Notes: generated by a model from the letters alone, not told the origin. DNA of 64,000 bases from Candidatus Bathyarchaeota archaeon (GCA_026014745.1 JAOZHS010000003.1:40137-104136); one strand, 5' to 3'. Shown: positions 40,888 to 45,420, counted from the first letter of the stretch. Made by a program: numbers and translations.

Positions 40888-41475
40888 ATGAACACCAAAA
40901 ACCTCACCTTCGCAGTAATGATGGGCGCACTTGGAACCGCCCTATTCGCCATATCATACACCGTCGCCCCACTCGCCCCCTCCCTCGCCGTTGACCTCAG
41001 CCTAATCGGCGTACTGGTCGCAGGCTACTACGGCGGACCCAAAATCGGCTTCATAACAGGCCTAATCGCCGGCATCGTCCCCGGCATAGTATTTGGTCCA
41101 ATGGGTTCGGGTGGCGTATTGGGTCTCATCGGTTTACCCTTCGGCAAAGCCCTCACAGGCATGAGCGCCGGTTTACTTAGCAACGCAATGGGATTTAAAG
41201 AAAACAAACATTCACCTCTGTTTGCTATCCCCGTCACATTTATCGCGTACATACCTGAAGCGCTCTTCACGTGGGGCTACTTCATGCTGGTAACACAAGA
41301 CATAACCACGGGAACCGCAATCTACTCAACCATCATCGTCAAAGCACTCATCGAAGTAGGCATAATGAGCATCATCATGGTTGCATTGCTAAGAAACACT
41401 GGCTTTAGCTGCTACGTCCGAAACCACTTCTTCACCGAAAAACCCAAACAACAACTTCCCCCAGTTTCTATCTAA
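40888..41475 (+). CDS. ECF transporter S-component (solitary)
   Basis: 6 TMs, 'AGYYGGPKIGFITG' motif. Confidence 0.75.
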   Translation: MNTKNLTFAVMMGALGTALFAISYTVAPLAPSLAVDLSLIGVLVAGYYGGPKIGFITGLIAGIVPGIVFGPMGSGGVLGLIGLPFGKALTGMSAGLLSNAMGFKENKHSPLFAIPVTFIAYIPEALFTWGYFMLVTQDITTGTAIYSTIIVKALIEVGIMSIIMVALLRNTGFSCYVRNHFFTEKPKQQLPPVSI

Positions 41476-41499
41476 AAAACAAAAAGATATAAAAAAAAT

Positions 41500-42462
41500 T
41501 TAGAAGCCTAAGGCTTGCGCAAGCACCTTAGGATTTATTTGCCCTGCCTTGAAGGTTCGGCCAGTTTTAGCGTTATTAATCATGAGCACCGCGGGGGCAA
41601 ATAGTCCGCCGTCGATTTTGTAAAAGTCTTTACCGGCATCTAAGAAGATTTGTAGGAACGGTTTGCCGTAGTCTTTGGAGTTGATTGAGGGGGCATCTTT
41701 TACTAGTTGCTGGAGTTTGGCTTCATCGTCGTAATCGACGGTTAAGTAGACGGTTCCGCCGTATAGGATGACATCGTTGGTTCTTGCCATTGCGACTTCG
41801 AAGTCTGGTCCGACTGGCGGGATGGGCGCATAACCCGTGGCGTAGCGGATGACTTTGGGGTCGAGTCCGAGTGTTTTGAGTTTGTGAATACCAACCTCGA
41901 CGACGCGTCCTGTAACTTGCGTTAAGCCAGCGACGCTTGCGGTTGGAGCAACAACTACAATTAAGTTTTGGGCGGAAACGTTGCTGCAGTTTTTGAGGAC
42001 TTTCTCTATTAATACGTCGGAGGGTAGAACATTGCTTTCCAATGTGATGACTGCTTTGTCAGATTGGTCGATGTAGTCTATTTCTTCGTAGACTTCTTTT
42101 GGTTTGAGTGCGATTGCACGTGCAGGTCCGGAGCCGATGGCGATTTGGTCGCCGTCTTTGATTCGCCAGCCAGCGAATTGGCTGCCTAACATGGCTACTG
42201 CGGGGTGGTCAGATGTGATTGTTACGGATGGGAACGTGTAGTCGCCGTAGCTTTTGAAGCCCAACTCTACTGTGGCAGCAGCGCCTAAGCAGAGTTCAGT
42301 GAAGAGTTTGCCTGCCGCAAATCCGCCGGGGGCTTTGACGCCTGCATCAATGATGGTTGCGCCCGCCGAGGACTTGCTGATGGCGACGCCGTATAGGTCG
42401 GGGTTATCGAGGAATTTCTGGGCTTTTTGCCAAGCTAATTGGTTTACGCTGATTTTACCCAT
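41500..42462 (-). CDS. mch: Methenyl-H4MPT cyclohydrolase
   Basis: 'IDAGV...GG..AG', 'GSQFAGW', 'GSGPARA', 'GRVVEVG.HK', 'RTND..LYGG', 'FYKID..LFAP'. Confidence 0.96.
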   Translation of the reverse strand: MGKISVNQLAWQKAQKFLDNPDLYGVAISKSSAGATIIDAGVKAPGGFAAGKLFTELCLGAAATVELGFKSYGDYTFPSVTITSDHPAVAMLGSQFAGWRIKDGDQIAIGSGPARAIALKPKEVYEEIDYIDQSDKAVITLESNVLPSDVLIEKVLKNCSNVSAQNLIVVVAPTASVAGLTQVTGRVVEVGIHKLKTLGLDPKVIRYATGYAPIPPVGPDFEVAMARTNDVILYGGTVYLTVDYDDEAKLQQLVKDAPSINSKDYGKPFLQIFLDAGKDFYKIDGGLFAPAVLMINNAKTGRTFKAGQINPKVLAQALGF

Positions 42463-42627
42463 TTACACTTTCACCTTAAGACAAACAGACAGGAAACAAC
42501 ACTAAAATATTAAAGCTAACGCCTTCAAACCGTAAATTTCGGTATTACATATACCAATTGATAGCAAAGGGGTTCTAACGTTTGAATAATGTGGGACATG
42601 TGTAACCTTTCAGCAAGAAACACAAAA

Positions 42628-42689
42628 TTGCTCAAAAAAGGCAATTTTGCCCCTATTAAGCAATTTGTTGTATCACGGGTGAGACAACA
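42628..42689. promoter_or_regulatory. Operator array 1: TTGC-N9-GCAA x2 (42628-44, 42647-63) + TGTTG-N14-CAACA (42666-89)
   Basis: Exact motifs and spacings read from sequence; duplicated 290 bp downstream. Confidence 0.75.
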
Positions 42690-42741
42690 TCAATTCATAT
42701 AGTGTAGTGGTTGAAGTATGACCCTCCAAATGTGGTGCTGG

Positions 42742-42894
42742 ATGGCTGTCTGCCCAAACTGCGGTAATGCCGTAGACAAACCCTTGCGAGAGATAGAGAA
42801 CGTCGTATTTTATGCGGCGATCTTCGTTTGTCCTAAATGCGGCTGCGAATTTAAGGTTCAGCGTTATCGGGATTCTTGGCTTAAGAAAAAGTGA
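42742..42894 (+). CDS. 50-aa CPxCG zinc-ribbon micro-protein A (MAVCPNCGNAVDKPLREIENVVFYAAIFVCPKCGCEFKVQRYRDSWLKKK); absent from ORF track
   Basis: Hand translation; two CPxCG knuckles; paralog at 43039. Confidence 0.88.
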   Translation: MAVCPNCGNAVDKPLREIENVVFYAAIFVCPKCGCEFKVQRYRDSWLKKK

Positions 42895-42917
42895 TTGGCA
42901 GCAGCCACTTCCAAAAG

Positions 42918-42979
42918 TTGCTCTGTTAAAGCAATTTTGCTATTTTAAAGCAATTTGTTGTTGCTTTGCTGAAACAACA
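42918..42979. promoter_or_regulatory. Operator array 2: TTGC-N9-GCAA x2 (42918-34, 42937-53) + TGTTG-N14-CAACA (42956-79)
   Basis: Same architecture as array 1, with diverged spacers. Confidence 0.75.
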
Positions 42980-43038
42980 TTCTTTCTTATTTGGGTGTGA
43001 GGTTGTGTATGAGTCATCTATTTCAGACGTGATGTTGG

Positions 43039-43191
43039 ATGACCGTTTGTCCTGAATGCGGGCATACCGTAACTGTCCCTTGCCGAGAAATCAAGAACAC
43101 CATGTTTTATGTGGCGCTATTCTATTGCCCAAAATGTGGATGCAGCTTCCGAGTTCAACGCTACAGCGACTGCTGGTTCATAAAACAATAA
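43039..43191 (+). CDS. 50-aa CPxCG zinc-ribbon micro-protein B (MTVCPECGHTVTVPCREIKNTMFYVALFYCPKCGCSFRVQRYSDCWFIKQ); absent from ORF track
   Basis: Hand translation; same length as A and aligns without gaps. Confidence 0.88.
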   Translation: MTVCPECGHTVTVPCREIKNTMFYVALFYCPKCGCSFRVQRYSDCWFIKQ

Positions 43192-43333
43192 ACTACAGCC
43201 TCAGACTTTCTTGCAAATTCTCTAACAGGGTAAACCGGTAAGCATCTAAACAAATCAGAAACCCTTGAAATCTACGTTAAATAAAGAGGGGGTACCTCGA
43301 AAGAGTTATCAGAGCCAGCAAGCGCGCTAATTT

Positions 43334-43350
43334 TTGCAGAAAAATAGCAA
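43334..43350. promoter_or_regulatory. Fifth TTGC-N9-GCAA site, upstream of thpR-cca
   Basis: TTGCAGAAAAATAGCAA. Confidence 0.5.
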
Positions 43351-43407
43351 GATACACTTAACTTGGCTCATGAAAGCATTTATGTATCGTCTCTGTTTTT
43401 TTAGATA

Positions 43408-43992
43408 TTGAAGAGAGTTAAATCAAATATGTCCGAACAAATTAGGAGCTTCATAGCTTTCGACATCCAAAACGACAGCGTTATGAGCAGGATCGCCGCG
43501 GCACAGCGCCTTCTTATTCAGACCAACGCTGACCTAAAACTCGTAGAACCCGTCAATATTCATGTAACTGTTCGTTTCTTGGGAGCCATCAGCCCCGAGA
43601 TGGTGGAGAAAGTTTATGCAGCCATGAAAAACATAAAATTCAGCCCATTCACCATCCGACTAAACGGTTTAGGAGTCTTCCCGACACTCAATTATCCCCG
43701 AGTGGTCTGGGCAGGCATCAAAGATGGAGCCGAACAACTCAGAAGCATCTTTGAGCAACTCGAGCCCCAAATTCACGATTTAGGATTCGCACCCGACCCC
43801 AACGGTTTTAGCCCGCACTTAACCATCGCGCGGGTACGGTCAGGCGCAAACAAACAGAGACTCGTCGATTTGGTGCAACGCCAAGAAGACTATGACTTCG
43901 GCGTCATCAGAGCAGACTGTCTGCGGCTTAAAAAAAGCGAACTGACACCCCGCGGCCCCACCTACACTACGCTTAAAGAATACTGCCCATAA
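43408..43992 (+). CDS. thpR: RNA 2',3'-cyclic phosphodiesterase (2H family; likely start at ATG 43429)
   Basis: Two HxT motifs: IHVTVRFLG and PHLTIARV. Confidence 0.93.
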   Translation: MKRVKSNMSEQIRSFIAFDIQNDSVMSRIAAAQRLLIQTNADLKLVEPVNIHVTVRFLGAISPEMVEKVYAAMKNIKFSPFTIRLNGLGVFPTLNYPRVVWAGIKDGAEQLRSIFEQLEPQIHDLGFAPDPNGFSPHLTIARVRSGANKQRLVDLVQRQEDYDFGVIRADCLRLKKSELTPRGPTYTTLKEYCP

Positions 43993-44007
43993 AGCCAGGC
44001 GAATCGG

Positions 44008-45420
44008 ATGGAGAGCGTCACCCAACAAATCCTCAAAAAAATAACGCCCACACCAGAGGAACGCCAAAGGGTTGACGCATTAAGCCGCCGACTTCAGCAA
44101 CAAATCATAGAGGCTTGCCAAACCGAAGGGGTGCCCGCAAAGGTGCGCGTGGAAGGTTCCGTAGCCAAAGACACTTACCTTAACGAAAACCCCGACATCG
44201 ACATCTTCATCCGACTACCCAAAAGCATTCCCCGCAAAAACCTCGGTGAAGTCGGCTTAAAAATCGCCAAAAAAGCCGCAGGAGACGCTGAACAACTCGA
44301 ACGCTTCGCAGAACATCCTTACCTTGAAATCATCGTTGACGATTACCGCGTAGATATCGTTCCCTGTTACGATGCGGCACGTGGAGAGTGGCAAAGCGCA
44401 ACTGACCGCACACCGTATCACACTGACTACATCAAAACTCACCTCTCGGAGCCGCTTCATGGCGAGGTGCGGTTGCTTAAGCGGTTCATGCAGGGCATCG
44501 GAGTGTATGGCGCCGAAATCAAAGTAGGCGGATTTAGCGGTTATCTGTGTGAGCTTTTGGTGATGCATTACGGCTCCTTTGCAGGCGTCATAGAGGCGTT
44601 TGCCGCGTACAGCGAACGAGTGGTCATTGACCCCGAAGGCTACTATAAAGAAAGACAAACCGAACTACCGCTACTGTTCCCCGAACCCTTGGTTATTGTA
44701 GACCCCGTGGATAAGGGTCGAAACGTCGCGTCCGCGGTGCAGCCCCAAAAACTCTACAGCTTCATCGCCGCATCCCGAGCCTTCCAAACCAAACCATCCG
44801 AGCAGTTCTTTTATCCGCCTAAAACCCACGCCGTCTCACCTGACATCATCCAAAAACAACTTACCAACCGCGGCTCAGCATTTGTGTTTCTGTTTGTAGG
44901 CGAAGCAGCGGCTGTTCCAGACGTGTTATGGGGGCAACTTTACCGTAGCAAACGCTCGCTGCGTAGACTACTCGAAACCAACGGCTACACGGTTCTGCAG
45001 GACGCCGTCTGGAGCAACGAACGGTCCATGACTGCGTTTGTGTTCGAGTTGGAGCAGCAGTTGTTGCCTAACGTTAAGAAGCATCTTGGGCCACCCTTGG
45101 AGCGGGGTGTGGAGTGTGAAAAGTTTCTCGCCAAATACGTCTCCGACAAGTCTGTGTTGGCGGGTCCCTATGTTGAAGAGGGGCATTGGGTGGTGGAGTT
45201 GCCCAGAAAAAGCACCAACGCCGTTGCGTTACTTTATGAGCGGTTGGCGGATGGCGGCAAAAACGCTGGCGTCGCCGATTTAGTTGCCCAAGCCGCGCGG
45301 GAGCGTCTGGAAGTGCTGGTTAATGGTGAGGTGCTTAAAGTTTATGTGGAGCACTCGGATTTTGCGGTGTTTTTAACAGAGTTCCTCTCGGGTAAGCCGT
45401 TTTGGTTAGAAGCCCAGTAG
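44008..45420 (+). CDS. cca: Archaeal class I CCA-adding enzyme
   Basis: 'GSVAKDTYL...DIDIF', 'AEHPY', 'DRTPYHT', 'GGFSGYLCELL', 'DPVDKGRNVASAV'. Confidence 0.97.
   Translation: MESVTQQILKKITPTPEERQRVDALSRRLQQQIIEACQTEGVPAKVRVEGSVAKDTYLNENPDIDIFIRLPKSIPRKNLGEVGLKIAKKAAGDAEQLERFAEHPYLEIIVDDYRVDIVPCYDAARGEWQSATDRTPYHTDYIKTHLSEPLHGEVRLLKRFMQGIGVYGAEIKVGGFSGYLCELLVMHYGSFAGVIEAFAAYSERVVIDPEGYYKERQTELPLLFPEPLVIVDPVDKGRNVASAVQPQKLYSFIAASRAFQTKPSEQFFYPPKTHAVSPDIIQKQLTNRGSAFVFLFVGEAAAVPDVLWGQLYRSKRSLRRLLETNGYTVLQDAVWSNERSMTAFVFELEQQLLPNVKKHLGPPLERGVECEKFLAKYVSDKSVLAGPYVEEGHWVVELPRKSTNAVALLYERLADGGKNAGVADLVAQAARERLEVLVNGEVLKVYVEHSDFAVFLTEFLSGKPFWLEAQ

Follow-up and report, generated by a model that had tools for sequence, protein, structure and literature searches.

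A probable two-module control region upstream of duplicated micro-protein genes in a Bathyarchaeia archaeon, with a wHTH-DUF1724 protein as candidate palindrome binder

Introduction

Archaeal activators usually bind upstream of the BRE and TATA elements. Proteins of the TrmB family act as dimers on inverted repeats, and TrmB and TrmBL1 use short inverted repeats near BRE/TATA from which they repress or activate by position. The TrmB inverted repeats differ in both sequence and spacing from TTGC-N9-GCAA, the palindrome with which this report is concerned. Ss-LrpB of Saccharolobus solfataricus and Ptr2 of Methanocaldococcus jannaschii are autoregulated through arrays of regularly spaced palindromes, and the ends of the Ss-LrpB box (TTGYAW...WTRCAA) resemble the TTGC/GCAA half-site.

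Regulators of the Msr/FilR1 type have been characterised genetically in methanogens (PMC3419521; PMC3991700; bioRxiv 10.1101/2021.03.04.434021). The Msr proteins act on specific promoters, for the most part by activation, and in Methanosarcina acetivorans members of this family activate methyltransferase genes (PMC3419521; bioRxiv 10.1101/2021.03.04.434021). FilR1 is a 54 kDa protein with a receiver domain (PMC3991700). We found no operator motif for the DUF1724/Msr/FilR1 family in the accessible literature, so the TTGC motif described here cannot be set beside Msr or FilR1 operators.

The DNA analysed is a stretch of 64,000 nucleotides (the window) from an uncultured Bathyarchaeia archaeon with a genome of 2.7 Mb (G000). 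In this window a pair of TTGC-N9-GCAA palindromes precedes each of two micro-protein genes, and the same pair recurs elsewhere in the genome beside a gene for a wHTH-DUF1724 regulator.

Results

Two copies of a cassette precede two micro-protein genes

The palindromes lie between mch and thpR. For comparison we used contig L088 of the Logan assembly, which represents a sister strain (mch 99%) and is orthologous over the region of mch, micro-protein 1, micro-protein 2 and thpR. The features of the locus are as follows, with positions counted from the first letter of the window.

41500-42462, minus strand: mch, from the gene order of the window
42628-42644, no strand: distal palindrome TTGC-N9-GCAA of array 1; sister strain with the same arms and 6 of 9 spacer bases changed
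42647-42663, no strand: proximal palindrome TTGC-N9-GCAA of array 1; sister strain with the same arms and 1 of 9 spacer bases changed
42666-42689, plus strand: TGTTG-N14-CAACA box of array 1, its TATA-proximal half extending to GAGACAACA
42694-42701, plus strand: TATA-like box TTCATATA of micro-protein gene 1, putative core promoter judged from conservation, 4 nt past the CAACA arm
42742-42894, plus strand: micro-protein gene 1, encoding a 50-aa protein with two CPxCG knuckles
42918-42934, no strand: distal palindrome TTGC-N9-GCAA of array 2; right arm GAAA in the sister strain, the only change in 52 arm positions
42937-42953, no strand: proximal palindrome TTGC-N9-GCAA of array 2, identical in the sister strain
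42956-42979, plus strand: TGTTG-N14-CAACA box of array 2; sister strain with the same arms and 3 of 14 spacer bases changed
42984-42991, plus strand: TATA-like box TTCTTATT of micro-protein gene 2, putative, fitting the genus pattern TGTTG-N13/14-CAACA-N3-5-TTCWTAT
43039-43191, plus strand: micro-protein gene 2, likewise encoding a 50-aa protein with two CPxCG knuckles; 61% identity to gene 1
43334-43350, no strand: fifth, lone TTGC-N9-GCAA, 27 nt upstream of the thpR TATA, of doubtful function
43429-43992, plus strand: thpR, with cca next in order

A preliminary description of this DNA had placed five TTGC-N9-GCAA palindromes and two TGTTG-N14-CAACA boxes here, and all seven were recovered at the positions it gave, the palindromes within 720 bp. 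The duplicated arrays do have the equal spacing of 9, 2, 9, 2 and 14 that had been claimed, and they start 290 bp apart. The order at each micro-protein promoter is two palindromes, the TGTTG box, 4 nt and the TATA-like box.

The window contains eight matches to TTGC-N9-GCAA (2.4 expected), a count that none of 100 shuffles reached and that chance does not explain. Over the whole genome the single palindrome occurs 58 times, which is no enrichment and fewer than for most other spacer lengths. We therefore take the tandem as the informative unit; an attempt to define a genome-wide regulon from the single palindrome was dropped, because the 58 copies are no excess over other spacer lengths. The exact tandem, TTGC-N9-GCAA-N2-TTGC-N9-GCAA, has only three copies in 2.7 Mb. 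The same genome contains none with linker lengths of 0, 1 or 3-7 and none with one mismatch. Tandem matches with two or three mismatches looked random, and one pair of them (C2:107015/107091) lies inside an open frame of 246 codons. The composite of array and TGTTG box gave four matches in each of the genome and metagenome contig collections, all in unrelated bacterial or repeat DNA.

Judged from their substitutions and conservation, the two micro-protein ORFs are real genes. Relative to the sister strain, gene 1 shows seven synonymous and four non-synonymous differences and gene 2 three and two, which gives 10 against 6 for both and a rough dN/dS of ~0.2. Each product is shorter than 70 aa with two CxxC knuckles about 20 residues apart, and the gene is conserved, as is expected of CPxCG micro-proteins. 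The family is multi-copy, and 32 of 36 genomes of the genus have homologues. Pfam returned zinc-ribbon matches, HVO_2753_ZBP among them, all weak and below threshold. A homologue search with micro-protein 2 returned only the query itself, probably because such small ORFs are seldom called. The start of gene 1 is set at 42742, because the upstream ATG at 42718 runs into an in-frame stop in L088.

Both micro-protein promoters contain such an upstream ATG (42718-42741 and 43009-43032), which heads a short frame and lies about 5 nt ahead of where transcription is expected to start. At gene 2 the frame is a mini-ORF of 7 codons (MSHLFQT, stop TGA), which is conserved in the sister strain; that of gene 1 is in frame with the gene in G000 and is stopped after three codons in L088. 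In several relatives a conserved gene of ~80 aa that has no Pfam family (MNRDEAVAIYKEII...) is convergent with the micro-protein gene and almost touches it (L007:1259-1507, L011:1226-1498, L019:1617-1904). At five loci a long unannotated ORF, which by eye we call a B12-binding/radical-SAM-type enzyme, adjoins the micro-protein gene.

The tandem array recurs beside a DUF1724 regulator across the genus

The third exact tandem lies outside the window, at a divergent gene pair.

G000:C1:199114-199149: third exact tandem, between the divergent regulator gene and the gene for a small Cys/His protein
G000:C1:199265-200047: wHTH-DUF1724 regulator gene

The small protein carries the motifs IKCxCGFEIP...HxEEHRR. 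The array abuts the TATA box of its gene; on the other side, the regulator gene has a conserved TTAAATAC box of its own, 68 bp downstream of the array. This arrangement of regulator, array and small Cys/His gene is conserved across the genus. We collected 27 regulator orthologues by protein similarity alone, and 16 of them have an array at up to three mismatches. All eight orthologues that are at least 50% identical have an array in which no more than one of the 16 arm positions is mismatched; two mismatches or fewer turned up in 0.04% of shuffled controls. The array of a 97%-identical orthologue differs from that of G000 by one base, which is in a spacer.

Across 15 regulator-linked arrays, a set partly ascertained by the pattern itself, information content is 1.92 bits per position in the arms, 0.69 in the spacers and 0.53 in the flanks. 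Their consensus is TTGCY-N7-RGCAA, with palindromes of 17 bp placed 19 bp centre to centre, and a ATATAAAT-type TATA follows at a fixed 2-3 nt on the small-gene side.

A scan of the genus found arrays with at most one mismatch in 24 of 101 genomes, compared with 4 for a reversed control. Exact arrays are present in 13 of the 101, and all 13 encode the regulator. The regulator itself is encoded in 39 genomes. The remaining 62 lack it, and no exact array occurs in any of them. By hand calculation the hypergeometric probability of this co-occurrence is ~1e-6, a value that overstates significance, as do other such p-values here, because related genomes are not independent. Other genes adjoining arrays encode a PadR-family regulator in three species (L047, L052, L070) and small wHTH proteins. 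Among the genomes searched, arrays before micro-protein genes occur in this species only (G000, L088), so the link between array and micro-proteins is without replication across species.

Some features of the regulator locus are recorded here as separate observations. In L083, L084 and L085 the gene order is thiolase, zf-ChsH2/OB protein, small Cys/His gene, array, DUF1724 regulator, UbiA prenyltransferase and DUF1638; immediately upstream in L083 are a PadR gene and an ABC transporter. For the small Cys/His gene (L001:4846-5070, minus strand, equivalent to G000:C1 ~198845-199069), G000 offers none of the start codons ATG, GTG and TTG, and the frame opens at ACG after a GGAGGT Shine-Dalgarno. 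The equivalent position is ATA in L083, L084 and L085 and ATG in G011 and G078. The gene may start at a near-cognate codon.

The regulator as candidate binder of the palindromes

The regulator has 261 aa and matches PF08350 (FilR1_middle/DUF1724) at 94.5 bits, the cut-off being 27. It is the only G000 ORF above that threshold; two further DUF1724-like ORFs of this genome fall below it. The match to HVO_A0261_N is also sub-threshold, and Pfam gave no match to a REC domain. Because the protein is 261 aa long and without a REC match, we class it as a stand-alone, Msr-like regulator and not as a FilR1 orthologue. In the AlphaFold model (pLDDT 88) a wHTH is followed by a long helix and an alpha/beta domain. 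The N-terminal wHTH consists of helices at 26-33 and 37-49 and a hairpin at 53-62, all predicted with pLDDT >90, and the C-terminal domain of the model resembles PLD/NucT folds. The top Foldseek matches among PDB entries are all TrmBL2 (best 5bpd, E = 2e-12, at a TM-score of only 0.45). A sequence search of the PDB with the regulator gave no match, Pfam gave none to TrmB, and exact-protein look-ups of the regulator, thpR and mch returned no record.

From co-location and co-occurrence, the regulator is the likely binder of the tandem palindromes. A dimer on each palindrome fits, because TrmB-family proteins bind inverted repeats as dimers. For a wHTH dimer, half-sites of only 4 bp with centres separated by 13 bp are unusual.

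The palindromes could also be a genuine operator that is bound by something else, either an unlinked transcription factor or the small Cys/His protein, which might act by itself or as a co-factor. The association of the array with the small gene is even tighter than that with the regulator gene. In every species the array abuts the small-gene TATA, and in G012 both array and small gene are found away from the regulator homologue; on these grounds the small protein or an unlinked factor could be the binder. In G012 and G095 the array stands beside the small gene with no close regulator orthologue adjacent, and the arrays in the three species with the PadR-family gene precede that gene. The small protein, however, has no recognisable DNA-binding domain or Pfam family. 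The regulator itself has both a wHTH and a predicted TrmB-like fold, and exact arrays are confined to genomes that encode it. We judge another binder to be unlikely, if worth keeping in view, and proceed with the DUF1724 regulator as the candidate.

The TGTTG box belongs to the micro-protein family

The second element of the cassette behaves differently from the first. Within 150 nt upstream, 15 of 22 homologue promoters have an exact TGTTG-N13/14-CAACA, compared with 0 of 4400 shuffles. In every case a TTCATATA-type TATA-like box follows 4-5 nt after the TGTTG box, which itself lies 50-70 nt ahead of the start codon, and the TTCWTAT element at a fixed distance past the box is conserved genus-wide. 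A reverse search for box plus TTCWTAT gave 30 matches in 25 genomes and none in the control, and every one of the 30 is directly upstream of a CxxC...CxxC micro-protein ORF. By this pattern the TGTTG box is private to the micro-protein family across the genus.

No TTGC array was found upstream of the micro-protein genes of relatives, and regulator-linked arrays are followed by a TATA box and have no TGTTG box. The combination of palindromes and TGTTG was found solely in this species (G000, L088) among the genomes searched. We regard the two modules as independent because the TGTTG promoters of relatives have no TTGC array, many of these relatives have no regulator, and the regulator arrays have no TGTTG box.

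It could be supposed that one factor reads the entire 62-bp cassette and treats the TGTTG box as a third, degenerate site in the same 19-bp phase. The elements begin at exact 19-bp steps (42628, 42647, 42666), and none of the four copies departs from the fixed linker lengths. Yet in 24 other genomes the TGTTG box stands before a further 28 micro-protein genes with no TTGC array, many of these genomes also being without the regulator, and the regulator-linked arrays carry a TATA next and not TGTTG. A single factor is thus very improbable, and two independent modules remain the preferred reading.

As to what binds the TGTTG box, we looked for a recurrent regulator beside the micro-protein homologues and rejected this candidate, since the only recurrent neighbours are the long ORF and the convergent ~80-aa gene. 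Other targets of the box in G000 were not convincing. At G000:C2:173120 a one-mismatch TGTTG-N14-CCACA followed by TTATAT stands before a different small Cys-rich ORF (CPLC...HMHECLC). The micro-proteins, zinc-ribbon proteins of 40-50 aa, might themselves bind the box, which would make them minimal autoregulating transcription factors, every paralogue with a private operator 4-5 bp from its TATA box. In this species the DUF1724 regulator would add a further layer and, with the small Cys/His protein at its own locus included, the regulon would contain tiny metal-binding proteins only and might be a metal- or redox-sensing circuit; we offer this as a long shot.

Subfamilies of micro-protein promoters have other conserved blocks in common immediately before the TGTTG box, gattggttgaagtgaaagcggtggaaa...catt and ...aaaaccaaccacaagctaa..., found in L098, L100, L110, L122 and L124 and in L104, L109, L111 and L112. 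These blocks may be different distal modules that take the place of the TTGC array.

Arms and spacing are conserved while spacers drift

The two 290-bp units of promoter and gene arose by tandem duplication and are ~60% identical overall. Between their 62-bp cassettes the arm and linker positions are identical at 30 of 30, and the spacers at 15 of 32 (hand count). At a background identity of 60% the probability of 30/30 is ~2e-7. A similar result was obtained between G000 and L088, in which 51 of 52 arm positions, 46 of 64 spacer positions and 5 of 8 linker positions are conserved (Fisher p = 3e-5). No indel occurs in any of the four copies of the cassette (two per strain), and indels are present just outside it.

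The preliminary description had proposed that arms and spacing are under selection while spacers drift, and both the paralogue and the sister-strain comparison bear this out. It had named arms no better conserved than spacers in an orthologous region as the result that would count against it; in L088 the arms are clearly the better conserved (51/52 vs 46/64). We infer from these alignments that the arms and spacing are under selection and that the spacers drift. Conserved half-sites at conserved spacing with drifting spacers, as is typical of operators, are seen in the paralogues, in the sister strain and across the genus.

Two further explanations bear on these data. In one, the palindromes form RNA or single-strand structure, as leader hairpins, a small RNA or a terminator of gene 1. 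The 71-nt cassette does fold as nested hairpins (z = -3.1 for copy 1 and -1.6 for copy 2), and copy 2 begins 24 nt past the stop codon of gene 1 and has T runs. However, any palindrome yields such folds trivially, and the stems are just 4 bp with loops of 9 nt. The arms are also invariant in sequence over ~20 species with no compensatory changes, the cassette is upstream of a conserved TATA-like box, and there was no Rfam match at E <= 1 in 41000-45000. We give structural RNA scarcely any weight. The other, that the arrays are a neutral remnant of recent duplication or gene conversion, or chance, starts from the fact that they did arise by tandem duplication of a 290-bp unit, and it is hardly credible when spacers 47% identical, near saturation, accompany 30/30 arm and linker positions, when gene conversion would have homogenised the spacers too, when the asymmetry of arms and spacers is repeated in the sister strain and when the array is kept at another locus across the genus.

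mch and thpR have promoters of their own

The core promoters of the flanking genes are placed as follows.

42507-42514, minus strand: mch core promoter TTTAATAT, kept upstream of mch in L088, L089 and L091
43378-43385, plus strand: thpR core promoter ATTTATGT within aaagcatttatgta, kept in five species, ~45-50 nt before the ATG

The preliminary description had suggested that the elements also control mch, and with it H4MPT C1 metabolism. The mch promoter is more than 100 bp from array 1, and it is kept in L089 and L091, in which the arrays are absent and mch has other neighbours. The suggestion is therefore not supported, the promoter of mch being conserved in species that lack the arrays. Control of thpR-cca, and so of RNA repair, fares no better: thpR has its own TATA, with aaagcATTTATGTa conserved at its promoter; TTGC-N9-GCAA is absent upstream of thpR in four other species, which have no micro-protein synteny either; and the right arm of the fifth site has decayed to GCAG in L088. 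The fifth base of that site is A, where the genus arrays have TTGCY as their consensus. We doubt that the fifth TTGC site is functional. These negative outcomes remove the suggested tie to H4MPT metabolism and RNA repair.

The stretch between micro-protein gene 2 and the thpR promoter (43203-43330) is the least conserved relative to the sister strain and has several indels. Conservation restarts exactly at the fifth TTGC site.

Discussion

We propose that the cassette is control DNA that stays untranscribed, situated immediately before the micro-protein core promoter, and that it comprises two independent protein-binding modules. The first, the palindrome pair, would be the operator of the stand-alone wHTH-DUF1724 regulator, of which two dimers would probably sit side by side. 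The second, TGTTG-N13/14-CAACA, would be the promoter-proximal site of another factor. On this proposal the family promoter, box plus TATA, acquired a distal tandem operator in this species, and the unit of promoter and gene was duplicated in tandem after that gain. The micro-proteins would thereby have come under the DUF1724 regulator with their family-specific control retained. Taken as a whole, this two-module model with the DUF1724 regulator as binder of the palindromes seems to us probable, on evidence drawn from comparison of genomes.

The preliminary description had envisaged two regulators, both unnamed, acting jointly on the micro-proteins. What stands is the presence of two independent elements in a cassette free of indels; what needs amending is that one of the regulators is no longer anonymous, the DUF1724 protein being a candidate. 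That the 62-bp cassette is without indels in four copies fits joint action of two factors, and the fixed length of the 2-bp linker between modules in these copies suggests contact between the bound factors. The position of the modules upstream of BRE/TATA suggests activation of the micro-protein promoters. At the regulator locus the array lies over the BRE of the small Cys/His gene, and this suggests either repression or recruitment of TFB/TBP.

These results matter in three ways. The DUF1724 family is widespread among archaeal regulators, and we can now point to a footprinted candidate operator, TTGCY-N7-RGCAA in tandem, at three putative target promoters. The private box of an unannotated zinc-ribbon micro-protein family, present genus-wide, provides a handle on the control of this family and hence on its function; we know of no conserved promoter box private to a micro-protein family that has been described. 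The micro-protein promoters would also be a case of evolution by addition of modules, in which an operator gained from another regulon was followed by duplication.

Among described systems, the candidate binder is most like MsrA-G of M. acetivorans, in being a stand-alone protein of ~260 aa with an N-terminal wHTH and PF08350 above threshold. It differs from these in its inferred targets, which here are small Cys-rich proteins and not methyltransferases, and from FilR1 of Methanothrix harundinacea in the absence of a receiver domain. The host of our candidate is a member of the Bathyarchaeia, whereas Msr and FilR1 are from methanogens. Like the TrmB-family regulators (TrmB, TrmBL1 and TrmBL2) of the Thermococcales, the regulator is predicted to combine a wHTH and a long helix with a PLD-like alpha/beta domain; by contrast with that family, it has no sequence-level similarity to any PDB chain, and the TM-score is 0.45. 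The micro-proteins resemble the Haloferax CPxCG micro-proteins of the HVO_2753 type in having 50 aa, two CPxCG knuckles and a weak HVO_2753_ZBP match, and differ in that all their Pfam matches are sub-threshold.

In its layout the system is like Ss-LrpB and Ptr2: the divergent region that controls the regulator gene contains several palindromes at a fixed spacing, and these lie just upstream of BRE/TATA or overlap it. The candidate binder belongs to a family other than Lrp/AsnC, and the boxes here are 17 bp with a 9-bp core that is not conserved, two of them abutting across a 2-bp linker where those of Ss-LrpB and Ptr2 are widely spaced. On the proposed reading the system would pair an autoregulated palindromic operator with a promoter-proximal box, a kind of control already known.
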